A stretch of 64,000 bases of DNA from NCBI GenBank assembly GCA_965205865.1, contig CBDBHR010000030.1, positions 1,024,001 to 1,088,000 of the forward strand. Reading direction: 5' to 3'. Position 1 is the stretch's first letter; the number at the start of each line of letters is the position of its first letter. The notes beneath the pieces were generated by a model. It saw only the letters and a list, made by a program, of their open reading frames with translations, had not been told where the DNA came from and ran no database searches. Made by a program: the position numbers and the translations under genes. This DNA is from a bacterium. Its GTDB lineage: Bacteria; SAR324; NAC60-12. This document shows positions 2,120-29,705 of the stretch, in pieces.

Positions 2120-4015
2120 CTAATGCCCCATTTCTTTCTTCAGGTCCTGGTCAATCCAGAGACGGGTGAAGGGGGTATTATGTTGACCGACTCCCAACCA
2201 GAGTTCACCGTTATAACCTTTGACCCACGGCTGGTGCGCGTTAAACTGTGGGGTTTCGGGACCCCATATTGTCCAGTGCCTCTCTATCCCGTACATATTC
2301 AACTCCCTGACCATCCTCTGCTGCTCCTCAACGTCGGCAGTAGCCAGGGCGGCTTCAAACAAGGCGTCATATTCCGGTTCAGCTATTCCCCGCCAATTGC
2401 CTGGAGATTTCGAGTAATACTGGCGCATTGTCTCGACAGGTATCCACCTGCCGCCCGTTGCCCAAGCCCATAAACCTTCATAAGTCCCATCGTTTCTCAT
2501 CGGGATGGCCGCTTGTGAATCCATGAGATTAATCTCTGCCTCGATGCCAATCTCACGCCAGTATGCGACGGCTAATTCCAGGTAGTTCAGGTCGAACCGA
2601 TACGTGCCGTTCAGGACGGTCTTGAATCGAATGCCGTCCGAACCGAGCGGAAACCCAGCCTCATCAAGCAGCTTCCCGGCCCCTTCCGGGTCATAGGTAT
2701 AGCCTTTCCTGACCTCTTCGGGCCACTCTGCAAATGGGGTGGTATACCCTTTGATGTCTGCCGCCAGCAGCCCGGCAGGTTCCCAGTTTCCATAACCCTT
2801 AAAGAAGGTACGGTTAATAGTCTCGAGGTCCAGTGCCATCTGCATGGCCTTGCGCACCCTGATGTCGTCAAGGGGCGGCTTATCCACCACGTTAAAAGTG
2901 AAAGCATTATCCGAGCGATACCAATACGAGTGAAACACGAGTTCGGGATTGGTCTTCTTGAGGCTCTCTACCTGGTCGATAGACCTGAGTTGAGAGTCGC
3001 CGGGGGTCCCTGCGTAATCAACCTTAGCCGAGCGTAGTGCCGCTACGAATACGGCTGGTTCCGGCATAACCGCGCCCCTCAACTGGTCAATATAGGGCAG
3101 GCGATTCTCCGGGTATTTTTCGTCAAAGCCCCAGTAGTTGGGATTCTTGTCCCAGGTGATAGAGCTGTCCTCGACGAAGTCCGTCAGCATAAAAGGCCCG
3201 GTGCCGACCAGGTTCCTCCAATCCTTAACGTCGCCGTATTGCTCGAATACCTCGGGAGGGTACATAAAAGCATTGTAGTGGTCGACAATAAAGAACAGCG
3301 CAAGGGGCTGTGGCTCTTTCAGCTTCATCACAACCGTCGAATCATCGGTGGCCGTTATCGATTCCCACTGATAAGTGTGCAGTGGTCCAAACATGGTGCT
3401 ATGTTCGGTGAAGCCGCTGCCCAGACCCATCATGCGGTGAAAGTTATATTCGACGTCCTTGGCCGTAAATGCTCTGCCATTCATGGGGGCCTTGTCATGC
3501 CAGTGAACGCCCTGGCGGATTTTGAAGACATAGGTCAGCGGGTCGGGTTGCGACCAGCTTTCCGCCAGCGCCCCTTTTAAACCACTGAGAGGGACGTAGG
3601 TGGTTTTCCAGTCAACCACGTCCCGATCTATTCCCCAGTCCGCGATGCTGAGCTTCTCCAGCACGCCACTGATGAAGTGGCTCGCCCAGCCACTAATCAA
3701 ATAGACGTCCGTATGCTCACCAACCTGCTTGCGCACATAGGTCAATGTCCCGCCATACTCCGGCGCAGTCACCATATCACCGGTGGTGGGGTCTTTGACC
3801 ATTTTCTTCTCAGCCGCGACGGCTGAACTGACCCCGAGGACGGCCACCATCAGGGTCAGGATTAAAATAATCAATAATGATTGGATTGTTCTGATTTTTC
3901 TTTTTTCCATGATTCCTCCGCTTTCGTTTTGATTTGGGTTATGATTTTTTGGACGTTCCATTACTCCTCCTTTATTAGATGCGAATTGATTTTTATTGAT
4001 TTTATCTTTCATCAT
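2120..4015 (-). CDS. ABC transporter substrate-binding protein, family 5 (copy 1); probable start 3910
   Basis: Signal peptide, PEYGGTL, LAESW, IRQGVHWHD, GTGPF, D.RVRKAM motifs. Confidence 0.93.
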   Translation of the reverse strand: MMKDKINKNQFASNKGGVMERPKNHNPNQNESGGIMEKRKIRTIQSLLIILILTLMVAVLGVSSAVAAEKKMVKDPTTGDMVTAPEYGGTLTYVRKQVGEHTDVYLISGWASHFISGVLEKLSIADWGIDRDVVDWKTTYVPLSGLKGALAESWSQPDPLTYVFKIRQGVHWHDKAPMNGRAFTAKDVEYNFHRMMGLGSGFTEHSTMFGPLHTYQWESITATDDSTVVMKLKEPQPLALFFIVDHYNAFMYPPEVFEQYGDVKDWRNLVGTGPFMLTDFVEDSSITWDKNPNYWGFDEKYPENRLPYIDQLRGAVMPEPAVFVAALRSAKVDYAGTPGDSQLRSIDQVESLKKTNPELVFHSYWYRSDNAFTFNVVDKPPLDDIRVRKAMQMALDLETINRTFFKGYGNWEPAGLLAADIKGYTTPFAEWPEEVRKGYTYDPEGAGKLLDEAGFPLGSDGIRFKTVLNGTYRFDLNYLELAVAYWREIGIEAEINLMDSQAAIPMRNDGTYEGLWAWATGGRWIPVETMRQYYSKSPGNWRGIAEPEYDALFEAALATADVEEQQRMVRELNMYGIERHWTIWGPETPQFNAHQPWVKGYNGELWLGVGQHNTPFTRLWIDQDLKKEMGH

Positions 4016-4016
4016 T

Positions 4017-4722
4017 TCTCCTTTTTCAGAAGTGATTTTTTTTTGATTTTACGTCTCATCCTGTCTCCTTTCATAAGAAATGACCGGTAAACCGGTGCGG
4101 TTAAAAAAATATTTTGGAGAGGATCCATCGTTTTCACATCTCCTTCCCTAAAACAACAAAGCATGATCTTAGCGCAAATATTATGAAGCCTCAAGCCCCA
4201 AATGAAAAAAAATGCGGAATTCGCAAAAAAAATTAAAAATCAATAAATCTCCTTTTTCAGAAGTGATTTTTTTTTGATTTTACGTCTCATCCTGTCTCCT
4301 TTCATAATAAATGACCGGTAAACCGGTGCGGTTAAAAAAATATTTTGGAGAGGATCCATCGTTTTCACATCATCTCCTTCCCTAAAATAACAAAGCATGA
4401 TCTTAGCACTACTATATTATTATGAAGCCTCAAGCTCCAAATGAAAAAAAATGCGGGATTCGCAAAAAAAATAAAAAATCAATAAATCTGCTCAAATCCG
4501 GGGACAGTCAGAAGCCGTTCAGTTCAATAACGTTGAAAAAGATTCCCAAGGAGGATCAATCGCTTTAACGTCCTCCCACGCCTATTTTGAATCGATCGAG
4601 CGGGAACCTTCTCCTTCCTTTAAACAACAAGGCATAATTTTATCAATTCAACTACGCAACCTCAAGTCCCAAATGAAAAAAAATGCGGGATTCGCAAAAA
4701 AATTTAAAAACAACCAAATCTC
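4017..4722. repeat. Tandem ~230-bp imperfect repeats upstream of the SBP gene (two near-identical units plus a diverged third)
   Basis: 4017-4247 repeated at 4248-~4490; motif aaatgaaaaaaaatgcgg(a/g)attcgcaaaaaaa recurs near 4201, 4439 and 4671. Confidence 0.85.
4166..4194 (-). promoter_or_regulatory. Putative sigma70 promoter facing the SBP gene (TTGAGG-N17-TAAGAT)
   Basis: 17-nt spacing; equivalents at 4637-4665 (TTGAGG-N17-TAAAAT), 18372-18400 and 18643-18672 (TTGACA-N18-TACAAC). Confidence 0.55.
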
Positions 4723-5142
4723 AATGAAGGAGAGGATTGATTTTTTTTGAAAATGTAGGATGGTAAATGGCTGGGTTGGGGGGGATTCTCGTAAAATAGA
4801 GGCATTTTCCGGAAAATACGTCTGGAATCCTTATACTTCAACCCGAGTTGAAGCGATTCTGGAAAAGCAGCAGCTTTTTAAGATGATTTTCGCGCCCGGG
4901 GAATCCAATCATTTGAATTTGAGTGGTATTTTGATATCGGATCTCATAAAAGTCTTGTCTCCTTGACAGATGCGTCCAAGATCAAACTTGATGTTTCGGG
5001 CCAAAATCGGCATTTTGTAATCTTTGTTCAAAAGAAAATCCATTGTCATGAGGAGAAGGCAATGGCATATGCATGCGGAAAATACCGCATGGGATGCGGG
5101 TTGCATATTTCGTTCTTGTCTCTTTTCAAAATCATATCTGAA

Positions 5143-7077: not shown

Positions 7078-8265
7078 ATGTCTATTGCCGAGAATGTGAA
7101 AGCCATGATGGAGACGGCATCATGGGTTCGTGAAATGTTTGAAAAAGGCCGACGCTTGAAAGAAATTCATGGTGAAGAGCAGGTCTTTGATTTTTCCCTG
7201 GGTAATCCTGTCATCGAACCCCCTGAACGGGTTTATCAGGTCTTGAAACAATTATTGCAAGCACGCCAACCCGGAGGCCACCGTTACATGCCCAATGCGG
7301 GACTCCCGGAGACCCGCGCCTTCATCGCGCAAACCCTTTCGCAGGAGACGGGATTCCCCTTTGAAACCGGAGATATCGTCATGTGCGTCGGTGCGGGAGG
7401 GGGTTTGAACTCATTGCTGAAAGCTCTGCTCGATCCGGGAGAAGAAGTGCTGACCTTGGCACCCTATTTCGTGGAATATGGCGTCTACGCTCAAAATCAT
7501 GGCGGAGTTCTGCGGGTTGCTGAAACCAATGAAATCTTTCAGATCGATTTTCAGCAAGTCCGTGAAACCCTCACTCCGCAAACCAAAATCATGCTGGTCA
7601 ATTCCCCCAACAACCCCACTGGAGCTGTTTATTCTCAGGAGCATATGAATCAGTTGGGAAAATTGCTGGCAGAAAAGGAGCAGGAATATGGTCACGCCAT
7701 TTATCTGGTTTCTGACGACCCCTACCGGCATCTCCTTTTCGACGGTTTGAAACCCTGCGACATTTTTCAAAGTCATACCAATGCAGTACTGGTCACCTCC
7801 CATTCCAAAGATCTGGGCCTGCCGGGAGAACGCATTGGATTCGTAGCGTTACATCCGGAAATCGAGGAACGCGCCAACCTGCAAAACGCCCTGACCCTCA
7901 CCACTCGTATTCTCGGATTTGTCAACGCCCCCGCCCTCATGCAGAGAATCCTGCCCCACCTCCAAGGCGCAAAAGTTTCCGCGGATGCCTATCAGCGTTT
8001 GAGGGATGTCTTCTGTGATGGTTTGTTGAAGATGGGATTTGACCTGACCGTTCCACAGGGTACGTTCTACGTCTTTCCCAAATCTCCGATTCCCGATGAC
8101 GTTGTATTTGTCAAAGAAGCCTTGACTGAAAATATTCTACTGGTACCTGGTTCCGGCTTTGGCAGAGCGGGTTATTTCCGCATTGCTTATTGCTGCGCTG
8201 AAGAAACCATCCACCGCGCCCTCCCCCATTTTGAAAGACTGGCACGGAAATTCGGGCTTTGCTGA
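7078..8265 (+). CDS. PLP-dependent class I/II aminotransferase (aspartate aminotransferase-like)
   Basis: NSPNNPTG, DDPY, SHSKDLGLPGERIG motifs. Confidence 0.93.
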   Translation: MSIAENVKAMMETASWVREMFEKGRRLKEIHGEEQVFDFSLGNPVIEPPERVYQVLKQLLQARQPGGHRYMPNAGLPETRAFIAQTLSQETGFPFETGDIVMCVGAGGGLNSLLKALLDPGEEVLTLAPYFVEYGVYAQNHGGVLRVAETNEIFQIDFQQVRETLTPQTKIMLVNSPNNPTGAVYSQEHMNQLGKLLAEKEQEYGHAIYLVSDDPYRHLLFDGLKPCDIFQSHTNAVLVTSHSKDLGLPGERIGFVALHPEIEERANLQNALTLTTRILGFVNAPALMQRILPHLQGAKVSADAYQRLRDVFCDGLLKMGFDLTVPQGTFYVFPKSPIPDDVVFVKEALTENILLVPGSGFGRAGYFRIAYCCAEETIHRALPHFERLARKFGLC

Positions 8266-8564
8266 CATCACCCGCGATTGCTTTGCTTCTTAATTTAATT
8301 GTTCCACTTTCCCCGCTTCGTCTCAAGAGCATGGTCAAAGTTCAAGCGATTCTAAAGCACCGCTTTTCCATTGACCCAATGTCACCGGAGACACTAACGG
8401 CGTCGCCTCGTCCCTTGCCGTAGCGGTGTCGCGGCGCGGGTCGGATATGACTGGCGCCCTTGCAACGAACCGGTGGAGTGTCGGACGGCGGCAGCCGTCA
8501 CCTCAAATGAGGTACGGACGGTACTGAAAGAGGACGGTCTGCACCGTTTTGTTGGGCATTTTGA

Positions 8565-8800
8565 TTAATATGGAGGCTCAGCCGGGCCTTGATAACCACA
8601 CATACCAAGTCTGGGAGAATTGACCAGTGGTAACGGTTCACCATATTCCTGGTGTGGATGTCCATCAGCATGATTGTCACATAAGAAACCAGCCTCGTCA
8701 TGTTCTTAGAGACATTCCATACACAGCCATGAAGCAGGTTGGTCACATTCGATACAACCAGCATCTGGTAATTCATTACGAGTCATTAAAAATACGGGTA
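8565..8800 (-). pseudogene. C-terminal remnant of a Cys-rich conserved hypothetical protein
   Basis: Manual translation: RNELPDAGCIECDQPASWLCMECL*EHDEAGFLCDNH...PLVNSPRLGMCGYQGPAEPPY*; internal stop, no N-terminus. Confidence 0.6.
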
Positions 8801-8849
8801 GTCACCCTCTTAAGTGTTGTTTCGGTACAACAGCGAAGAGGAGCGACCT

Positions 8850-9194
8850 GATCGTGTGTGCCTGCCGTGCCAAGTTGGCGGCCATCGCCGGAGTTTGTTG
8901 AATCCACTGGGTTTTTCCAGCTTGCCGGCTGGGTTTTCTCAGGGACTTGTGCAAGCGCACAAAGTTGTAGTAGAGGTCTTCTCATGCGGTTGAAACTGCC
9001 AGCATCCGGACTTTTTTTGAGAAAGCGAGCGATTTTCTCACAAGCCGTCCGTTAAAATGCCTCATGGTGAGGTGCTTTCTCTCGCCATAAGCGGTGTTTT
9101 CTCCGAGCAACTGCCGGACGGCCTGCTCGGCGCCAAAGACGACTTTGGCCTCAATCTCCATCAAGCGGCCCCGCTTGTCACGATGCTTGATCAT
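8850..9194 (-). mobile_element. IS1-family-like transposase C-terminal remnant
   Basis: TAYGERKHLTMRHFNGRLVRKSLAFSK...*EDLYYNFVRLHKSL...TPAMAANL with an internal stop. Confidence 0.7.
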
Positions 9195-9385
9195 TCTACA
9201 ATCGCGATTTCTTCCGGGCTCAGCCTATATAGATCGTTGGCTGTCTGCTTCTCTTTGGGAAACCCCTGCTCGTTGACCAGGCATTCAGGGCTGATAAAAC
9301 TGAAGCGACAGCGATCCTTACCATTATCATGGTAATAAACAGCGAGTGCGCCATCAAGCCCGTTTTGCCAGCAATGCGTTGACAA
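9191..9385 (-). pseudogene. Internally deleted remnant of a type IIG R-M gene
   Basis: DGALAVYY...RFSFIS matches the N-terminal part of 39589-40425; LYRLSPEEIAIVE matches the C-terminal LYELTPEEI of 36897-37508. Confidence 0.7.
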
Positions 9386-9555
9386 CCAGACACCTGACGA
9401 TGCGTGTTTTCCCCGTCAAATCTTTCCGCAATCAGCTTAAGCTTGATTAGCCCGTGATGTTAGAGCATAATTTATTACTAAAGTTGCCAATTGCGTGAAC
9501 CACCTCGCAAACTCTGTTATTTTACGGACTGAAATCGAACCAATTGGAATTTGAA

Positions 9556-10413
9556 ATGGAAATAACCACGGATATATATCTTGGCGACAGCAAAGAGCAA
9601 TTAAAACTGCTCAAAGATAATTCAGTTGATCTGATAGTCACTTCCCCACCCTATGCCGATCAACGTAGAGGTACATACGGTGGTATTCATGCTGATGATT
9701 ACGTTGAATGGTTTTTACCCATCTCCGAGCAACTATTACGCGTTTTGAAGTCTTCAGGAACCTTCATACTGAATATCAAAGAAAAAGCGATGAAAGGAGA
9801 ACGTTGTACTTATGTGATCGAACTGATTTTGGAAATGCGAAAACAAGGCTGGTTTTGGACGGAAGAATTTATATGGCATAAGAAAAATTGTTACCCTGGA
9901 AAGTGGCCTAATCGCTTTCGTGACGCATGGGAAAGACTGCTTCAATTCAACAAAAATCGCAAATTTTACATGTACCAGGAAGAAGTTATGGTTCCGGTAG
10001 GTGAATGGGCAACCACACGATTAAGGAACCTTTCCGAAACCGATAAAACCCGTGATGATTCAAAAGTTGGAAGTGGATTTGGTAAAAATGTTTCAAACTG
10101 GCTGCACCGGGATAAAACTTATCCAACGAATGTTTTGCACCTGGCCACTGAATGCAATAACAAAAATCACAGCGCCGCCTTTCCTGAAGCCTTACCGGAG
10201 TGGTTTATCAAATTATTTACGAAAGAAAGAGATCTGGTACTCGATCCCTTTATGGGGTCTGGAACTACTTTGTTTGTGGCAAACCGAATGAAACGGAACT
10301 CCGTCGGTATCGACGTGGTTCCTGAGTACTGTGAGATGGTTAGAAAAAGATTAAGACCCGTAGAATTATATCTATTGGAACCAACAGCAGAATATGAAAA
10401 AGCTCAACCTTGA
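9556..10413 (+). CDS. Site-specific DNA methyltransferase, beta class (probably N4-cytosine)
   Basis: TSPPY motif IV precedes HSAAFP and DPFMGSGTT motif I. Confidence 0.93.
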   Translation: MEITTDIYLGDSKEQLKLLKDNSVDLIVTSPPYADQRRGTYGGIHADDYVEWFLPISEQLLRVLKSSGTFILNIKEKAMKGERCTYVIELILEMRKQGWFWTEEFIWHKKNCYPGKWPNRFRDAWERLLQFNKNRKFYMYQEEVMVPVGEWATTRLRNLSETDKTRDDSKVGSGFGKNVSNWLHRDKTYPTNVLHLATECNNKNHSAAFPEALPEWFIKLFTKERDLVLDPFMGSGTTLFVANRMKRNSVGIDVVPEYCEMVRKRLRPVELYLLEPTAEYEKAQP

Positions 10414-21392: not shown

Positions 21393-21530
21393 CTATCCCC
21401 CCAACATGGCTGCGATGTCTGGTGGCAGTTTGACCCCGTTTTTCTGCTCGAAGTCTGCCACGCTTTTGTAGTCGTTATGAAATGCGGCGACGATATCCAC
21501 CCCCTTGCCTTTACAGTAGTTAGATCTGAA
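21393..21530 (-). pseudogene. Orphan conserved C-terminal cap of the TPR proteins
   Basis: GVDIVAAFHNDYKSVADFEQKNGVKLPPDIAAMLGG*. Confidence 0.7.
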
Positions 21531-21558
21531 TGGTTTGTGACGGACCACTTGAGAAATA

Positions 21559-23058
21559 TTACAAAGTTTCAAAGAAATGCTGAATGTATTGTATGATAAC
21601 AGGATTGCGTAACCAAGGATTTTGTAACTCAAAAATTCTCCGGTTCGTCCAACTTTCCCACGATGTTTCCATTTGTCCGCGTGTGACATTTAAGCTGGTC
21701 CATAGTTCTTCGATCTCTGTCTGATCTCGAAGCATTGAGATTGCACGCATGCTTATGTCTTCTCCTTCGTAAATAAAAACTAATGGGACATTAGGAAACC
21801 AATGGGCGTTTGTACTCAACATTTCTTGCTTACCAGAAGCAATTATCGCCGCTAATTCGTGAATGTGAAGCGCTACATAATATGCAACCAGTGAAGATCG
21901 GTATTCCAAGTCATCCGTAAATATTTCAGATAACCATTCCCATCTTTCATAAGCGGAAATTATATATTTCCAACTTTCACCAGAATTTTCACCGAGTGAT
22001 TTACATACGCCCATCAGTCTATACTCTTCCCATATATCACAGAATACAGCATCGTTATAGGGTGAAGGAACTTTCACTTTCGCAAGTGCCAGGGCCAGGT
22101 TTATTTGCTTCGTACTGAGACTCAAAGCACCGTGCAGACTATGGTACACGTATCCAAGAGCGTTGGGAATATCAATCCAGACAATGTAACCACTGCGATT
22201 CCATTCAGCAATGTTGAGCAGGTCATCAAGCAAAGACTTTTGATCTTTGAATTGGTCTCTGCCGGATTCGACCCCCGCTAGTGCCACGGCAATCAGGGGC
22301 GAGACAATATCAACCGCTTTATCCACTACCTGAACCAAATCTTTTTTTTCTGGGAGTTGTTCCTCTAATTCATTTTGCCGCCATTGTACAAAAGATTTGA
22401 AGATACCTGGCCGAATGCGTTTGAGGAGTTGTCGCCACCCAAGTACATCTGCGGCACGGGCTAAATCAATTGCTGTTGAGTATGCTTGCGTCACGGATTC
22501 GACCCGATCCGGGATTTCAGGGGGTTGAGTTTCTGATCTCGTAAAAGGCGGTGCTTCTTCCCCGGAAGGAAGTCTGGCAAATGGACTTTTGCCCAGATTC
22601 GGTTTCTGTACCATTGGCACTTGGTGGAGTTCATGGAGCAATACTTTGAATTTTTCATCGAATTGACTCTCATCTGTAAAGTCGATATAAATTCGTGTTC
22701 CGAAAAATACTGGCACTTTTTCTTTTCCTGAAGCCTGACGAACTATAGGAATAAACTTGTTGGTTCCCAAGTCCTGAACAAGCTGCGCCGTCACAATGAG
22801 CCTTTCATATCCGACTCCACCTTCGCCGGCGCTCGCCTTTCTCACGTAACTGTCCGTACAGATGACCAAAACCCTGCCGGAATCCTTGACGCCAGCGTCG
22901 ATGAATCGAGTCATATCATCTCCCGGGTGGAGGTCCCACTGGTCAAGTATAACGTCAATGCCGTTGTTACGCAGTTTTGCGCCAAGTTCTGATACCCATT
23001 GTTTATGCGTTGGTGAGTCGTGAGAATATGAAATAAACACTTTGGGATATTCTGTCAC
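21559..23058 (-). CDS. SEFIR/TIR-domain protein with unrecognised helical C-terminal domain
   Basis: PKVFISYSHDS, GIDVILDQWDL, GGVGYE; first ~160 aa highly similar to 31419-32708. Confidence 0.88.
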   Translation of the reverse strand: MTEYPKVFISYSHDSPTHKQWVSELGAKLRNNGIDVILDQWDLHPGDDMTRFIDAGVKDSGRVLVICTDSYVRKASAGEGGVGYERLIVTAQLVQDLGTNKFIPIVRQASGKEKVPVFFGTRIYIDFTDESQFDEKFKVLLHELHQVPMVQKPNLGKSPFARLPSGEEAPPFTRSETQPPEIPDRVESVTQAYSTAIDLARAADVLGWRQLLKRIRPGIFKSFVQWRQNELEEQLPEKKDLVQVVDKAVDIVSPLIAVALAGVESGRDQFKDQKSLLDDLLNIAEWNRSGYIVWIDIPNALGYVYHSLHGALSLSTKQINLALALAKVKVPSPYNDAVFCDIWEEYRLMGVCKSLGENSGESWKYIISAYERWEWLSEIFTDDLEYRSSLVAYYVALHIHELAAIIASGKQEMLSTNAHWFPNVPLVFIYEGEDISMRAISMLRDQTEIEELWTSLNVTRGQMETSWESWTNRRIFELQNPWLRNPVIIQYIQHFFETL

Positions 23059-23315
23059 TTTTTATCTCCGGTTTCGAAAGGAACGAGTCATAACACCAGT
23101 CTCTTCATGGTATGTTGCAGATAGATATTTCTCTCTTGGATTTTAACCGATCGAGGGTAGATCCTCAAGGGAATGTCCCAATCGATATAAAGAGAACAAC
23201 AGTCGGCTATCTATGAGATTGACACTCTGAATGTTGATTGCTATATTTTGGATTGTTACTCACTATAGTGGTCGGGCGATAATTTTTGGAACAGTTTGAC
23301 ATCAGGAGACCTAAA

Positions 23316-23573
23316 ATGGCTGAAAAGGAAAAAAACAAAGAGAGTCGTTCTTTTAAGCTCAAAGTGAATGGCATTGAAATCGACGTTTCGTGTCAGAAAC
23401 TCATTGCGAAAGACATTTTGAAACTCGCAGAAGAAAAAGGAGCTATCCCCGGTAAAGCGGAAGATTATATCTTGCAGGGAGACAAAGGACAGTATAAAGA
23501 CGATGACTTGGTCGATCTGGAGGAAGACAACCTATTCATTACGATTCCCGACAAACCCACCCCGATAGCGTAG
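23316..23573 (+). CDS. Ubiquitin-like (multi-ubiquitin-type beta-grasp) protein
   Basis: FKLKVNG...L.AKDILKLA...DYIL...DDLVDL...FIT pattern; RBS aggag at 23304; first gene of an E2/E1 operon. Confidence 0.75.
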   Translation: MAEKEKNKESRSFKLKVNGIEIDVSCQKLIAKDILKLAEEKGAIPGKAEDYILQGDKGQYKDDDLVDLEEDNLFITIPDKPTPIA

Positions 23574-23585
23574 CCTTTTCTTAAG

Positions 23586-23960
23586 ATGTCCAACAGTATC
23601 GAACAGGTAATAGCCGAATTGGAAGCCTTGGGGCATGAGACCTCGCTGTTTGATAGCCCACAAGGAAAAGCGGTTTCCTTCGACTACACCGTCGAGACAG
23701 GTCCCTACAAAGGTAAACAAGTCAGGCTGGGCATCAGCTTCCAGGGAAGCGAACGTTATCCCGAATATCCCCCCCACTGGATTCATGTATCTCCGCCAAT
23801 TGACGATGGCAGAGGCGGCGTGGTCGAAAAATACGACGTAAACGGGCGCGAATGGCTCGCAATGAGCAGACCTCCTGGGGAAATATGGGACCGGCTACCG
23901 ACAAAGCACATGGCTGCTTACCTGAACGAACATTTACGACGAATCTGGAAAAACGTATGA
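23586..23960 (+). CDS. Prokaryotic E2-like protein without cysteine
   Basis: Y.VETGPYKG..VRLG...YPEYPPHWIHV...WLAMSR...W; stop overlaps the next ATG (ATGA). Confidence 0.7.
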   Translation: MSNSIEQVIAELEALGHETSLFDSPQGKAVSFDYTVETGPYKGKQVRLGISFQGSERYPEYPPHWIHVSPPIDDGRGGVVEKYDVNGREWLAMSRPPGEIWDRLPTKHMAAYLNEHLRRIWKNV

Positions 23961-25390
23961 GGTTCGAGACGGTTCTCACCGCCGAGGCGGATTCAACCTC
24001 CAGCGAGCACTTGTTGCAGCATTACCGGGGCAACAAAATTCAGGAAGATCTTTGCTTCGCCCTATGGCGTCCTTCTACAGGACGGTTGCGCCGCACCGCG
24101 TTGATTGACGAAATCATACTTCCCCAAGAAAGTGAGCGTATCCTGCATGGTAATGCCAGCTTCGAACCACACTACCTCGCGCGGGCGATGAAAATAGCGC
24201 GTAAAAAAAAAGTGGGTCTGGCTTTTATGCATAGCCACCCGAATCCTGGATGGCAGGGGATGAGTTGTGCTGATATCGAAGCAGAGCGGGATGTTCTGGC
24301 GTACCCGGCGGGGGCGACGGGCTTACCGTTGGTGGGATTGACAATCGGTACCGATGGTTATTGGAGCGCGCGCTTCTGGGAGAGAGACGCCAGCAAGTCG
24401 GGTGAGCAGGTTGGACAAATGCGCCGTCATTGGTGCGAGAAAGTTCGCGTCGTCGGACCCCAGTTCTACAAGAATTACTTCAATGACAATATCGCGCCTT
24501 CCCCGCTGCGGAGAAATATTCTCAGGCGTACTTTCGACACATGGGGACGCGAATCGCAAAACACGATTGCACGTTTGAAAGTTGGTATTGTCGGACTTGG
24601 CAGCGTCGGTTGCATCGTCGCGGAAGCCATCGCTCGAATCGGAATCGCGCATATTACGCTGATCGATCCTGATAAAGTCGAAGAGCACAACCTCGACCGT
24701 CTGCTTTACGGAACTATAAAGGATATCGGTAAATTAAAGGTTGATTTAGCGGCGCAAGCGATGCGGCGAAATACTACCGCAGAAAGCATCCAAATAACTA
24801 CTTTGCCGGTTTCAGTTCACAACGAATCGGCTTATAAAGCCGCCCTGGATTGCGACGTACTTTTCAGTTGCGTCGACCGGCCGGTTGCCCGAGACGTTTT
24901 GAATTATATCGCGATTGCTCATTTGATTCCGGTCATTGATGGCGGAATTGCCGTAGAAACCGACAGACGACAAGACCGCTTGTTTTCGGCGCATTGGCGT
25001 GCGCACGTCGTCACGCCGTATCATCAATGCCTGCGTTGCAACGGGCAATACAATTCCAGCATGGTGGTAATGGAATTGGACGGGTCGCTCGACGATCCGT
25101 CTTATATCAGCAATTTGCCTCCTGAAGAGCGGGGCGGTAACCAGAATGTTTTTCCATTCAGCTTGGGCGTTGCCGGGATGGAAGTGAATTTGATGCTACG
25201 CTACCTGCTCGCCTGCGAGTGGTGGCCATTGGTGGGACAACAGGACTACCAATTCGTGGCCGCTGGAACACGCATCATCAATGGTGAATGTCACCCCAAC
25301 TGCTCAATCCATCAACGTCGTGCGCAAGGGGATGCGGAAAACCCACACTACTTAATCGCAGAACGCACGGAATCGCCAAAATCCGGATAG
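23957..25390 (+). CDS. JAB-domain plus ThiF/E1 adenylyltransferase fusion
   Basis: N-terminal E...HSHP-x7-SCAD; C-terminal VGLGSVG, DPDKVEEHNLDR, KVD, SCVD, CLRC and CHPNC; coupled start at 23957. Confidence 0.88.
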   Translation: MRFETVLTAEADSTSSEHLLQHYRGNKIQEDLCFALWRPSTGRLRRTALIDEIILPQESERILHGNASFEPHYLARAMKIARKKKVGLAFMHSHPNPGWQGMSCADIEAERDVLAYPAGATGLPLVGLTIGTDGYWSARFWERDASKSGEQVGQMRRHWCEKVRVVGPQFYKNYFNDNIAPSPLRRNILRRTFDTWGRESQNTIARLKVGIVGLGSVGCIVAEAIARIGIAHITLIDPDKVEEHNLDRLLYGTIKDIGKLKVDLAAQAMRRNTTAESIQITTLPVSVHNESAYKAALDCDVLFSCVDRPVARDVLNYIAIAHLIPVIDGGIAVETDRRQDRLFSAHWRAHVVTPYHQCLRCNGQYNSSMVVMELDGSLDDPSYISNLPPEERGGNQNVFPFSLGVAGMEVNLMLRYLLACEWWPLVGQQDYQFVAAGTRIINGECHPNCSIHQRRAQGDAENPHYLIAERTESPKSG

Positions 25391-25412
25391 CGTACAATTT
25401 GGCGACACTTCG

Positions 25413-26868
25413 TCAAGATTTTCTATAAGGTATCGAGGACATCTTGATTTCTGGACCAAGCAATCCTGCCTTTTGAAGCAAGATTTTGAGGCAATTGCGA
25501 ACATTATTGGGATCAGGCACACGTGGACCTAGTGTGATCAAGCTATCTGAGTCTAATATCTCTTTAACTCGGAGAGCCTCGTCCTCGTAGTAGTGTCTTA
25601 TGCGAGTAGGTATATTGCTTTGGCCCTTGTAGTCAATAAAGATCCTGTCTTTATCAGTATCTGATTCTGGAATAACAAAACGGCATTCGTTTTCATACTG
25701 GTACGCTTTATCCTTAAACAAATATCGGATCTTTTCCAAGTATCCTACAATTCTCCCTACCAATTTTTCTTGAACATCTATAATTGGTTGTCCGCTAATG
25801 CTTACCAACGGATTCAAAGTTTCATATAAAGTATCCAAGACAGACTTCGATGGCTAAAAAAGTAGTGTCTTATGCGAGTAGGTATATTGCTTTGGCCCTT
25901 GTAGTCAATAAAGATCCTGTCTTTATCAGTATCTGATTCTGGAATAACAAAACGGCATTCGTTTTCATACTGGTACGCTTTATAGCCTTAAACAAATATC
26001 GGATCTTTTCCAAGTATCCTACAATTCTCCCTACCAATTTTTCTTGAACATCTATAATTGGTTGTCCGCTAATGCTTACCAACGGATTCAAAGTTTCATA
26101 TAAAGTATCCAAGACAGACTTAAGAAGCTGATCAGTACGCTTCACCTCATCAGTGCCATATAGGACTCTCAGCAATCGATTACCCGGGACGCTTAGCTTT
26201 AAAGAGCAACCTTCGCCATCTTTTCCGTAGGCACACCAATACACGAGGTCGTCGCTCACATCCCTTTCAATATCGGGACATGGAGCAATGAATGAGGTGA
26301 TATAAGCATGAGGCGCGTTTCTTGCTTTCAACAATTCATGTTCTTTCACGAGGTTCAGATTCCGGTTAAAATATATACCTTCATCCGGGTCGTTGAAATG
26401 GACGGAATCATACAATCTTAAAGAAGCGCTTCGTCCTTCCACAGAATCTACCAAGTTCATTAAGAGAGAGTTCAACTCGTCATAGAATCCCAATTTAGCA
26501 GTCCGTCTTTCCATCAAAGCGTTTCTATGTACTGGTTCATCATAGTACTCTTCGAATAATTTTCGCAACGATTCGATCCGTCTTTCCACTGAAGCATTCT
26601 GAAGCATGGATATGAGTGTATCGAGACTCGTATAGTGAATGACAGAAACCTTTTTCCTGCTTTCATGTTCCTCGAACCTGTGACGATTTTCGATTTTGTA
26701 GAGCAAGTTTTTCAACACCTCATCCAGCGCTGGAAAAACAATTTCGGTTACATACAACATACCTTGTTCAGGATTTCTTTCTAAGTATTCAGGATTTTTC
26801 TTAAAGTGTTGCAGACCTGCTGTTACTTGCGCTTTTAACTTTTCCATTTTCTCATCTGTATTGCTCAC
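25413..26868 (-). pseudogene. DUF2971-family gene split by a ~260-bp tandem duplication and a frameshift
   Basis: HYTS, FNDPDEG, ITSF, DDLVYWCAYG, FKDKAYQYENECR; 25589-25847 repeated at 25861-26120. Confidence 0.8.
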
Positions 26869-27019: not shown

Positions 27020-29705
27020 TCATACCTGCTGTCTCGTCAACATGGCCGCAAGGTCTGGCGGCAGTGTGATCCCATTTTTCTGTTCGAAGTCTTTCACGCT
27101 TTCGTAGTCGTTTTGAAATGAAGCGATGATGTCCACCCCCCTTTCTCTGGCAGCAGTCAGATCGGATCTGGCTTTTTCCCATTCTTGCAGATGTAACCAG
27201 GCCTCGCCACGATTGTGATAAGCCTTGCCATCATCCGGTTTCAGTTCTATGGCATTGTCAAAGTCCAAGATGGCATGCTCATAATCACCTTTTCGGTAGT
27301 AAGTAACTCCGCGATTGTAATAAGCTTCAGTATCATCTGGATTTAGTTCTATGGCCTTGTCACAGTCTGCGATGGCACGGTCAAACTCTCCTTTATGGCC
27401 GTAAGCAGTGCCACGATATTTATAAGCTTCAGCATCACCCGGATTTAGTTCTATGGCCTTGTCACAGTCTGCGATGGCACGGTCATGCTTTCCTTTACAA
27501 ATATAAGCAGTGCCACGATATTTATAAGCTTCAGCATAGTCTGGTTTCAGTTCTATGGCCTTGTCAAAGTCCAAAATGGCACAGTAATGCTCGCCTTTAT
27601 GGCCGTAAGCAAGGCCACGCTAATATCCTTAACTCTCTGTTGTAATAAGCTATAGCATCATCGGGGTTCAGTTCTGTGACCTTGTTATAGTCTGCAATGG
27701 CACGGGCAGATTCACCTGTTTTGCTGTAAGCATTTCCACGATTCTTATAAGCATTGTCAAAGTTTGGATTTAGTGCTATGGCCTTGTCAAAATCCACAAT
27801 GGCACAGTCATGCTCGCCATTACGATTGTAAGTGATACCGCGGCTGTAATAAGCTTCAGAATCATCTGGTTTCAGTTCTATGGCTTTGTTAAAGTTTGCG
27901 ATTGCATGGGTATACTCTCCTTTATAGTCGTAAGCATATCCACGATTCTTATAAGCTTCAGAATCATCTGGTTTCAGTGTTATGGCCTTGTCAAAGTCAA
28001 CAATGGCACAGCCATGCTCTCTTTTATGGCCGAAAGCAAGGCCACGGTTGTAGTAAGCCTTGGCAAAGTTTGGTCTCCGCGCAACTGCCTTATAATAATC
28101 CTGAATTGCATTGTCATACTCGCCTATATTGCTATAAGCATTGCCACGATTGTTATAAGCCTCGGCAAAGTCTGGTTTTAGTTCTATGGCCTTGTTAAAG
28201 TCTGCAATAGCAGGGGCAGACTTCCCTGTCTTGTTGTAAGCACTGCCTCGGTTGTTATAAGCTTCGGCATAGTCTGGTTTCAGTTCTATCGTCTTGTTAA
28301 AGTCTAGAATTGCACGGTCATGCTCGCCTTTACGGTCGTAAACAAGACCACGATTGAAATAAGCCACGGTATATTCTGGGTTCAGTGCTATGGCCTTGTT
28401 ATAGTCTACGATGGCACGGTCGTGCTCGCCTTTACGGCCGTAAGCAAGACCACGGCTGTAGTAGCCGGCTGCATCATTCGGGTTTAGTGCTATAGCCTTG
28501 TTATAGTCTGCGATTGCACGGTCATACTCGCCTTTATCGAAGTAAGTAGCACCACGATTTATATAGGCTTCGGCAAAATTCGGGTTCAATTCTATGGTCT
28601 TGCTATAGTCTGCGATAGCACGGGCAGACTCGTCTGTATTCTTGTAAGCAAGACCACGGTTGTAGTAGCCGGCCGCATCATTTGGGTTTAGTGCTATAGC
28701 CTTGTTATAGTCTGCGATAGCACGGTCATACTCCCATTTATCAAAGTAAGCATTGCCACGGCTATAGTAACAGGCTGCATCATTTGAGTCCAGTTCTATA
28801 GCTTTGTTCAAGTCCTTGATGGCACGGGCAGACTCACCAGTATTGTTGTAAGCAACACCACGATTCATATAAGGTAAGGCAAAGTCTGGTCGCATTGCTA
28901 TGGCCTTGGTACAGTCTTGAATGCTATGGTCATACTCGCCTGTTTTGCCATAAACACCACCACGATTCGTATAAGCCTCGACAAAATCTGGTTTCAGAGT
29001 TATGGCCTCAGTGTAATGACATATAGCTTTGTCGTGATCTCCTTTGTCTTGGCAGGTCAACCCTTTATAAAACTCCATATTGGCACTCCGGTGTATGTCG
29101 CGATGTTTGATGAATCCCTGAAGGTCGTTGTAGATGGTTGCGGTAGACAAACCATGGTACTTTTGCAGGTGCTCCAAGATAGGTTGTTTGAGGTCTTTCG
29201 GGATAGAGATTACATCGTCTGGTTCAAGAAAACCCTGCGGTGGTCGCACGAAGAGGCTCTTTTGGGCGATTACGCGATTTCTGGGATTCAGAGGATGATT
29301 GATGTGTTTTTCTACCGGTTCCCTTTTTTGCAAGATAATCCTTCCGTCTCTGTCCTGGGAGCCGTCGCAGGCGAAGAAAAGGGCTATGAGGTAGTCGGTC
29401 GTAAAGTCGATCAGGTTGGTTTTTCCGCCAAAGTGTTGCAGTTCGGTCAGGATTTCAAATTCGTCGTTTTCGTGAGTATACTTTTTAGCCTCTTTCAGAA
29501 TTTCCCTTTGGACAGCCTCTATATCAAAATGCTCTGACTCAACGCCATATTCACGGTAGAGGCTCGAGGAGACTTTCTCGTAGCATTCTGGTTCGCCGCG
29601 GTAAATGCAGTCACCGTCGGCTGATTTTTCCGCAATCTCGTGGATTATTTCCAAAACCTCGCTGAGTGAGTCGCTTTGAGTATTGGATGTGTCTGGTGCG
29701 TTCAT
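27020..29705 (-). CDS. FRG domain + long TPR array + C-terminal cap, interrupted by a 19-bp insertion at 27620-27638
   Basis: YRGE, LQHFGGKTNLIDFT...ALFFAC, RVIAQKSLFV; many 34-aa TPRs; removing ctaatatccttaactctct joins both ORFs into 888 aa. Confidence 0.88.

Follow-up and report, generated by a model that had tools for sequence, protein, structure and literature searches.

A diverged Bub-like ubiquitin-type module with an alanine-ended modifier and a convergent DUF2971-like gene in a SAR324 genome

How could a ubiquitin-like conjugation operon work, and with which partner, if its modifier does not end in glycine and neither its E2 nor the crossover loop of its E1 offers a catalytic cysteine? 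This question is raised by positions 23316-25390 of a 64,000-nucleotide stretch of a SAR324 bacterium (lineage NAC60-12; assembly GCA_965205865.1, contig CBDBHR010000030.1, positions 1,024,001 to 1,088,000), which we call the window. An earlier note, made from the sequence alone, had described the locus as an intact and minimal operon encoding a ubiquitin-like protein (Ubl), an E2-like protein, and a JAB-E1 fusion protein, and had proposed a variant of the bacterial Bub pathways. Our analysis supports the Bub relationship and extends the unit by one gene. It is rather likely that the locus represents a four-gene cassette of the conflict or defence type, in which a diverged Type I Bub-like module is paired with an effector of the DUF2971 type that has an ADP-ribosyltransferase (ART)-type core. 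As a whole, the cassette is probably a defence module.

Re-reading of the sequence confirmed the layout of the three genes. The Ubl gene (BubA-like; 23316-23573, plus strand, 85 residues, a single Multi_ubiq-type domain) has an AGGAG 6 nt upstream of its ATG and is separated by 12 bp from the E2-like gene (BubB-like; 23586-23960, plus strand, 124 residues), whose stop codon shares the sequence ATGA with the start codon of the JAB-E1 gene (23957-25390, plus strand, 477 residues). All three genes are encoded on the plus strand and are thus inverted with respect to the flanking genes on the minus strand. The fusion protein consists of a JAB/JAMM peptidase domain (23957-24470, plus strand, residues ~1-170) and a ThiF/E1 adenylation domain (24500-25390, plus strand). 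The noted residues were confirmed as well, and the motifs of the three proteins are as follows: the Ubl ends in PDKPTPIA (T82-P-I-A85) and, in the window copy, has no glycine among its 25 C-terminal residues, the E2 has no cysteine at all and contains W90-LAM-S94-R95, the JAB domain carries E30 and H92-S-H94...S103..D106, and the E1 part has its adenylation core, CLRC (C358xxC361), a cysteine-free loop with Y365, S368, and DDPSY383, and a second CxxC (C445/C449). When one genome per species was scanned, 30 loci emerged. The three genes occur in unchanged order in 29 of them, and the thirtieth contains only a weak ThiF fragment. Another 11 module loci were found on metagenome contigs. The recurrence of the three genes in 29 genome and 11 metagenome loci places these features far beyond chance.

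The residue that is conserved at the end of the Ubl is an alanine. The window and the 29 genome loci together provide 35 Ubl copies, none of which deviates at T82 or A85. Most of these copies (29/35) end right at the alanine, and six run on with unrelated residues, namely five with short extensions (+2, +3, +6, +8, and +8 residues) and the copy of locus L003, which is fused in frame to the E2 through the four-residue linker TIPE with no stop in between. Among the metagenome copies, which come from loci that partly duplicate one another, PT[PQ][VI]A is found in 10/10, five ending there and five carrying 2-6 further residues. In total, the alanine is kept in 45/45 Ubl copies from 40 related loci, and 11 copies have an extension or an E2 fusion beyond it. 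In distant relatives with Ubl-E2 fusions the junction reads TPVA, or TPVS in a few cases. The Bub and Bil papers describe a conserved glycine followed by variable residues; here the same pattern is seen with alanine. Because the invariant alanine precedes variable extensions or a fused E2, it is presumably the last constrained residue and the mature end exposed by the JAB domain, with disposable residues following it. The earlier note had considered either activation of a C-terminal alanine or a tail trimmed by the JAB domain. The first part stands in that the alanine is the invariant working end, and the homologues do not end in glycine. Trimming back to an internal glycine was rejected, as there is no conserved glycine near the Ubl end, and the JAB domain probably trims to the alanine instead. 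As a side observation, tandem Ubl genes occur in L002, L006, and L017, and the Ubl-E2 pair is duplicated in L007 and L008, with the T-x-V-A end kept in all copies; in L041-L043 two adjacent Ubl-like matches are separated by 3 nt and also keep this end.

The JAB-E1 protein connects the module to a known pathway. Its ThiF domain is recognised by Pfam (E = 4.5e-32) and has a GxGxxG-type core, and the best relative of solved structure is BubCD from Citrobacter (E = 5.5e-24; profile E = 5.6e-28), with which the JAB and E1 parts are colinear. The H-x-H and the aspartate of the JAB domain pair with the zinc ligands of BubCD, and E30, H92, H94, S103, and D106 are invariant in a 24-row alignment (A5). 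Across 150 sequences the only cysteines of the crossover loop are those of the CxxC, whereas Y365, S368, and Y383 do not vary (Y383 in 150/150), which is the conservation of the E1 tyrosine that the earlier note had asked about. An alignment of the E1 family to the JAB-E1 of Celeribacter indicus, which is linked to a DUF6527 gene, was obtained by hhalign with a probability of 99.7% over 394 columns, and pairs Y383 with the tyrosine of DPAEY. The alignment of the E1 and BubCD profiles stops at residue 329/317, short of the crossover loop, and a phmmer search with the C-terminal 151 residues of the E1 gave no match in the solved BubCD. The proposed equivalence of the tyrosines is therefore one to the Celeribacter homologue and not to Citrobacter Y370 itself. 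A search with the E1 brought up thousands of ThiF proteins, and among the matches listed (at least 120) all are 73-94% identical over the full length. Identification as one of the ThiF, MoeB, or 6A-MBL families of NCBIfam was rejected because all scores are far below the cut-offs (e.g. 74 versus 275), and identification as Cap2 by PADLOC was rejected because only the generic E1 part of the Cap2 models matched. We also observed that many short metagenome contigs with 90-99% likeness pile up at 24964-25215, which is the crossover-loop part of the E1 gene. The summed contig depth there is ~124 in run X8 compared to ~3 for the organism's own long contig, and therefore several other organisms in the samples carry near-identical versions of this segment.

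In the E2-like protein, H64, H67, D74, W90, S94, R95, D102, and H116 are invariant, and S94-R95 was found in 32/32 sequences, so that the serine in question is as conserved as the earlier note had required. There is no conserved cysteine column in the family; single proteins contain between none and three cysteines at varying places. The AlphaFold (AF2) model has a predicted local distance difference test score (pLDDT) of 88.9, and its best match in the VIA structural search is Citrobacter BubB (9eav_D; Z 8.8, root mean square deviation 4.0, 115 residues aligned), followed by many E2, UEV, Atg3/Atg10, and Cap2 proteins. A profile search of 1.8 billion representatives returned only 98 relatives. 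Prok-E2_E (PF14462) matches 12 of 46 distant relatives scanned, four of them above the cut-off (25 bits), and the nearest E2 cluster in the ESM Atlas carries Prok-E2_E in 26% of its members. Judged by these matches, the E2 behaves as a divergent offshoot of Prok-E2_E and not as a member by the curated threshold. The canonical E2 of Celeribacter indicus reads W-Q-R-W-S-R-H, which contains the Ser-x-His known from the Bub report, and W90...S94-R95 pairs with its W...S-R in the profile alignment. In canonical Bub the E2 serine is needed for conjugation, and oxyesters have been shown for the Citrobacter pathway, according to the available part of the report (10.1101/2024.11.21.623953).

Several results weigh against the assignment of the module to the surroundings of Bub. 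At the Pfam threshold no family is found for the Ubl of the window (its Multi_ubiq match reaches E = 0.13 only), and the E2 of the window has no Pfam match at E values up to 1 and is thus below the Prok-E2_E cut-off. Foldseek did not find any match to the E2 model in the PDB at E <= 0.001, and the best E2-type rows are weak (probability 0.87-0.90, TM 0.48). The profile alignment of the two E2s is statistically weak as well (E = 0.038, probability 1.4%). In addition, the histidine two residues past the serine of Type I Bub is replaced by a nearly invariant proline (S94-R95-P96), and in Type I Bub it was the joint mutation of the E2 serine and this histidine that abolished activity, as far as the accessible part of the source goes (Ye, Gong, Chambers, Corbett 2024, 10.1101/2024.11.21.623953). 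Finally, the invariances come from a narrow and partly redundant family (mostly 60-90% identity) and weigh less than the counts suggest. On the other side, Multi_ubiq matches 9 of 35 members of the Ubl family (best E = 7.4e-6), and the nearest Ubl clusters in the ESM Atlas are Multi_ubiq in 30/30 cases (score 0.92). The searches that had been proposed against Bil and Bub components thus point to Bub, by BubCD as closest E1 relative, the hhalign result, BubB as top structural match, and Prok-E2_E, and the cysteine features of Bil were not found.

A different explanation for a cysteine-free E2 would be that it is a non-catalytic adaptor of the UEV/RWD type and that the E1 alone activates the alanine, which would then be passed to an amine or a non-protein product as in MccB/PaaA-type or sulfur-carrier ThiF reactions. 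The lack of both a cysteine and a histidine past the serine fits such a role, UEV domains are among the fold matches, and MccB, MoeB, and ThiF are found among the relatives of the E1. However, S94-R95 is part of the invariant W-x3-S-R that is shared with the canonical Bub E2, in which the serine is needed, and BubCD is by far the closest relative of the E1, not MccB. It is also hard to reconcile with an 85-residue Multi_ubiq domain, which is not a short peptide, and with the absence of rhodanese or biosynthetic genes among the conserved neighbours. We regard an adaptor role as quite improbable and continue with the E2 as a putative serine-dependent enzyme of a Bub-like module.

The earlier note had called the operon minimal because no target or partner gene was evident, and this view has to be given up. 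Clustering of the open reading frames (ORFs) of the loci revealed one further conserved gene. It encodes ~340 residues and runs towards the E1 gene, the two 3' ends facing each other on opposite strands. In the window it covers 25413-26868 on the minus strand, as a 5' fragment (25870-26868, minus strand, 332 residues, with the frame lost past a duplicated stretch) and a 3' fragment (25413-25838, minus strand, 141 residues, ending in IPYRKS), and it belongs to the unit. Besides the window, it is present in 27/29 genome loci of the family and in 10/10 metagenome loci that extend past the E1, with sequence identities down to 30%. In most loci the 3' ends of this gene and of the E1 gene overlap by ~25-35 nt (in L001 the ends are at 7482 for the E1 gene and at 7457 for the ART gene). 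The encoded protein matches the PADLOC candidate PDC-S31 (E = 1.6e-7), and its model has a pLDDT of 84.8. Long helical additions (residues 1-63 and 198-251) dominate the structural search, and for the alpha/beta core of the model (residues ~61-350) the VIA search returned Tpt1 (Z 7.7, 114 residues aligned) and DarT (Z 6.6 and 6.5, 150 and 145 residues aligned). H78-Y-T, N-D-P-x-E-G, Y147-x-x-S-F, and E260-x-E262 (L001 numbering) are invariant or nearly so, and the proteins carry a conserved C-terminal S-x-I-x-Y-R tail. As far as the available text of PMC12522546 goes, DUF2971 is predicted to be a DarT-like ADP-ribosyltransferase; following its motifs I-III, H78, Y147, E260, and E262 are candidate H-Y-ExE residues.

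Not all results agree with this identification. Pfam DUF2971 (PF11185) reaches only 20.0 and 18.3 bits in two of three intact relatives, compared to a cut-off of 22, and does not match the fragments of the window. All matches to the ART fold have Z scores below 8 and appear amid rows of helical bundles, and Foldseek returned only meaningless Hsp90 rows for the model. A complex prediction with Ubl, E2, and the DUF2971 protein gave 0.63, 0.60, and 0.00, with 0.00 and 0.00 for the partner-replaced controls and 0.70 for the E2-replaced control, and speaks neither way.

Is the DUF2971-like gene a functional partner, or do two independent defence genes just travel together? In the latter case the module could tag phage proteins as Bil does, and the ART would be a stand-alone gene of the Aristaios type. 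A DUF2971 protein indeed works alone in Lactococcus, where it constitutes the single-gene antiphage abortive-infection system Aristaios, according to the accessible part of PMC11381338. Being encoded on the other strand, the gene is not transcribed together with the module. Furthermore, there are plasmid relatives of the module in Actinobacteria (E1 identity 35-41%), on the Nocardioides plasmid pCHL (L034) and on a plasmid of Mycobacteroides abscessus (L035), near which neither a DUF2971 nor a DUF6527 gene is annotated. Instead, a sigma factor gene and an ImmA/IrrE peptidase gene are found upstream on the same strand in L034, and an ImmA/IrrE gene upstream on the opposite strand in L035. Their Ubls end in PVA or GVA (...CAPVA and ...GGVA), and their E2s carry an H-S-R motif. 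Because these relatives are Ala-ended and have no DUF2971 gene, the Ala-ended clade appears from its sequences to be wider than the ART-linked cassette. However, the tail-to-tail order is kept in the loci counted above despite an ART identity of down to 30% and despite differing phylum labels, the coding regions overlap at their 3' ends in relatives such as L001, and we found no other conserved partner and no BubE. Two unconnected genes are thus an unlikely explanation, and we prefer to see the convergent gene as a part of the cassette.

The two genome loci without a DUF2971 gene carry other genes in its place. Past the E1 gene and on the same strand, L005 encodes a TIR/SEFIR protein (7548-8468) and L020 a STAND-type NTPase (7517-8737). 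The presence of TIR/SEFIR or STAND proteins in the DUF2971 slot looks like an exchange of effectors, as judged from the gene content. Tentatively, the Ala-ended and cysteine-free module could be a switch for a DarT-like ART toxin. The ART might be held in check or released by reversible attachment of the Ubl, with the JAB domain as eraser, or it might itself ADP-ribosylate the Ubl or its conjugates. ADP-ribosylation of ubiquitin is known from SidE-type enzymes.

Combining the comparisons, the following sequence of events can be proposed. The JAB domain would cut past the invariant alanine wherever the Ubl is extended or fused to the E2, and by homology the ThiF domain would adenylate the carboxylate of Ala85. 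From the alignments, the Ubl would then pass to Tyr383 on the cysteine-free loop and from there to Ser94 of the E2, as oxyesters, and the E2 would transfer it to a lysine of a target. We infer the Ser/Tyr oxyester intermediates, which had already been suggested before, from the invariance of both residues and their alignment to the canonical Bub serine and tyrosine. The convergent DUF2971 protein, which fills the slot of the BubE peptidase, would be the effector of the cassette or a protein that is controlled by the module. To our knowledge, Bub are the only ubiquitin-type pathways that have been reported to use oxyesters. The branch alters three features thought to be general for Bub, as it has an alanine end, no histidine by the E2 serine, and no BubE that we could find. 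The Ala-ended Ubl offers a probe of how strictly E1 and JAB enzymes require glycine, and a fixed partner with a predicted toxin-like enzymatic activity opens a simple assay route to the function of the module. If the switch proposal were true, the cassette would be the first bacterial system that couples ubiquitin-type tagging to ADP-ribosylation and would provide the Bub family with a concrete effector and read-out. In that case, the replacement by TIR/SEFIR or STAND proteins would turn the module into a sensor or regulator of general use whose effectors can be exchanged.

The distribution of the cassette is patchy. The loci are found in metagenome-assembled genomes labelled Latescibacterota, Binatia, Chloroflexota (Caldilineaceae, Dehalococcoidia), Nitrospirales, classes of Acidobacteriota, Thermodesulfobacteriota, Gammaproteobacteria, and Alphaproteobacteria, with an overall E1 identity of 61-89%. 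Within the family and order of the window genome only 2/41 genomes carry the module, the window genome and its one congener. A patchy occurrence together with 61-89% identity across phylum labels suggests that a strongly constrained cassette has recently spread horizontally and is under selection. An origin from phages was rejected, since tblastn with the E1 found no phage record, the E2 profile no viral contig, and PHROGs only generic ThiF-type matches. For BubE/DUF6527 (PF20137) there are no matches in the window genome (91.9% complete) and in 0/88 genomes of the phylum, while the control genome was matched, and there is no DUF6527 among the conserved neighbours of the 29 genome loci. In L003 the cassette is located between hsdM (2737-4860, upstream) and hsdS (8670-10067, downstream) of a type I restriction-modification system, and in L005 hsdS (8684-10039) lies downstream of it. 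ORF clusters in L006 and L012 suggest the same neighbourhood.

Is the cassette still functional in the window genome? The operon had been described as intact. This holds for the three module ORFs insofar as they are otherwise open, but the E1 gene stops at a TAG (25388-25390) where close relatives have TGG. Readthrough would add a homologous C-terminal tail of ~19 residues, whose coding sequence in relatives reaches into the 3' end of the convergent gene. A contig of the public run X1 matches the TAG without differences. In addition, a tandem duplication (25589-26134; 272 nt followed by 274 nt with two extra bases) splits the DUF2971-like gene by a frameshift. A 2-kb contig of run X1 connects 25711 directly to 25986 and thus misses one copy of the duplication. 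With a single copy, the frame on the minus strand stays open over 393 residues. A contig of run X5 does not have the two extra bases at 25984. In runs X4 and X8, contigs do not cover the whole stretch. Run X1 may be the source sample of the assembly, and contigs built from k-mers can collapse true tandem repeats. The DUF2971-like gene may therefore be truly broken, broken in a minority variant, or broken by an artefact of assembly. With an E1 without tail and a duplicated and frameshifted effector gene, the cassette may be decaying in this genome. The stronger version, that it is a dead or dying remnant, would agree with the nonsense codon, the disrupted effector gene, and gene remnants nearby such as the ORF 21393-21689, which has just the C-terminal module of the TPR protein at 27020-27574. 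However, the module ORFs are 86-94% identical to those of close relatives, 3/23 other E1s of the family (A5) naturally lack the tail, too, and the X1 contig has the open single-copy frame. We therefore consider a remnant possible although doubtful.

The surroundings of the cassette in the window (13000-37000) are a dense conflict-type island. PADLOC and other searches identified a Schlafen/AlbA_2 ATPase (AlbA_2/HATPase_c_4), a bSEFIR-type TIR protein directly upstream of the cassette (E = 4e-72), an FRG-TPR protein (PDC-S15), a second TIR-SEFIR protein, a TIR-TPR protein, two pentapeptide-repeat proteins, and a Fic protein. Between 18 and 21 kb the GC content is low, and no ORF there reaches 150 residues. 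The ORFs at 21393-21689 and 27020-27574 (both minus strand) share an end module of ~35 residues, F-x-N-D-Y-x-S-V-x-D-F-E-Q-K-N-G-x-x-L-P-P-D-x-A-A-M-L, and the former, which is the shorter one, resembles what is left of the C-terminal part of a TPR protein. Concerning expression, a promoter-like site (TTGACA-17 nt-TATATT with TG, 11/12 matches) is found at 23219-23247 on the plus strand, ~70 nt upstream of the Ubl start, and a terminator-like hairpin that matches the consensus only at 25398-25417 (plus strand), directly past the E1 stop. Such sites are no commoner in the region than in shuffled sequences, so that it is its position alone that speaks for the promoter.

Compared to known systems, the module is closest to Type I Bub (6E.1). 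Both have a Multi_ubiq-type Ubl, a cysteine-free E2 of the UBC fold with an invariant serine in W-x3-S-R, a JAB-E1 fusion with a cysteine-free crossover loop and an invariant tyrosine, a JAB domain that processes the Ubl precursor (here judged by comparison), and a location among mobile or defence genes. Type I Bub consists of BubAB, BubCD, and BubE, and all Bub operons encode BubE, as given in the available part of the original report (Ye, Gong, Chambers, Corbett 2024, 10.1101/2024.11.21.623953). Four features differ, which speaks against the concern that the operon might match a characterised Bub subtype in every respect. The Ubl end is a conserved glycine in Type I Bub but an alanine in the window family; Ubl and E2 are fused in Type I Bub (BubAB) but encoded by separate genes here, with fusion in 1/29 genome loci; the histidine two residues past the serine of the Type I E2, which goes with a conserved aspartate, is replaced by Pro96, other invariant histidines and aspartates (H64, H67, D74, D102, and H116) being present; and instead of BubE/DUF6527 there is the convergent DUF2971 gene with an ART-type core. 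Because the glycine end, the AB fusion, the histidine by the serine, and BubE are missing and an ART-like partner is added, the family is best described, on its sequences and models, as a diverged branch that is related to Type I Bub (6E) and lies outside its membership. The AB fusion is optional in nature, though, as shown by the split operon on the Celeribacter indicus plasmid pP73C (L036). This operon encodes separate multiubiquitin, E2/UBC, and JAB-ThiF proteins in the same order, and in its E1 the loop opens with the CxxC and a DP-x-x-Y motif is likewise present. It differs in its two-domain Ubl ending in TEGGAE, in the WSRH of the E2, and in a DUF6527 gene past the E1 gene on the same strand. 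Split Ubl and E2 genes were thus rejected as a novelty. As a point against a defence role, the authors of the Bub report found no phage protection by canonical Bub, again as far as its available part goes (10.1101/2024.11.21.623953). The literature covered did not contain any Ala-ended Bub-like or DUF2971-linked Ubl-E2-E1 system; subscription journals and Table S1 of the Bub paper, which may list such systems, are outside this scope.

Bil (BilABCD) also combines a Ubl, an E2, an E1, and a JAB peptidase in an antiphage context, and Bil Ubl precursors have variable residues past the conserved end, according to the accessible part of the preprint by Chambers et al. (2023). In contrast to the window family, Bil relies on a catalytic cysteine in E1 and E2, its JAB peptidase is encoded by a gene of its own, its E1 has tandem domains, and its Ubl has a conserved glycine end from which a terminal alanine must be removed. 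In the module the E2 has no cysteine and the E1 loop none besides the CxxC. In Type II CBASS (cyclic oligonucleotide-based antiphage signalling system), Cap2 and Cap3 likewise provide an E1-type enzyme and a JAB peptidase, and a conjugation module is coupled to a defence operon that bears an effector. There, however, the CD-NTase itself is activated by a fused E2-E1 that uses cysteines, and there is no separate Ubl. CD-NTases of Type II CBASS end in glycine or alanine, which sets an example of an E1-type enzyme that deals with alanine (PMC10449767, in its available part). The features of ThiS/MoaD-ThiF/MoeB systems were not found, since the Ubl ends in alanine and there is no sulfurtransferase among the conserved neighbours, which do not include a DarG-type macrodomain partner either. 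The convergent protein resembles Aristaios and the DarT-like DUF2971 proteins by its weak DUF2971 and PDC-S31 matches, its DarT/Tpt1-like core, and its ExE, H-Y-T, and Y-x-x-S-F motifs. Unlike other DUF2971 proteins, those of the window family have helical additions and the S-x-I-x-Y-R tail, and their genes are fixed tail to tail to a Ubl module.

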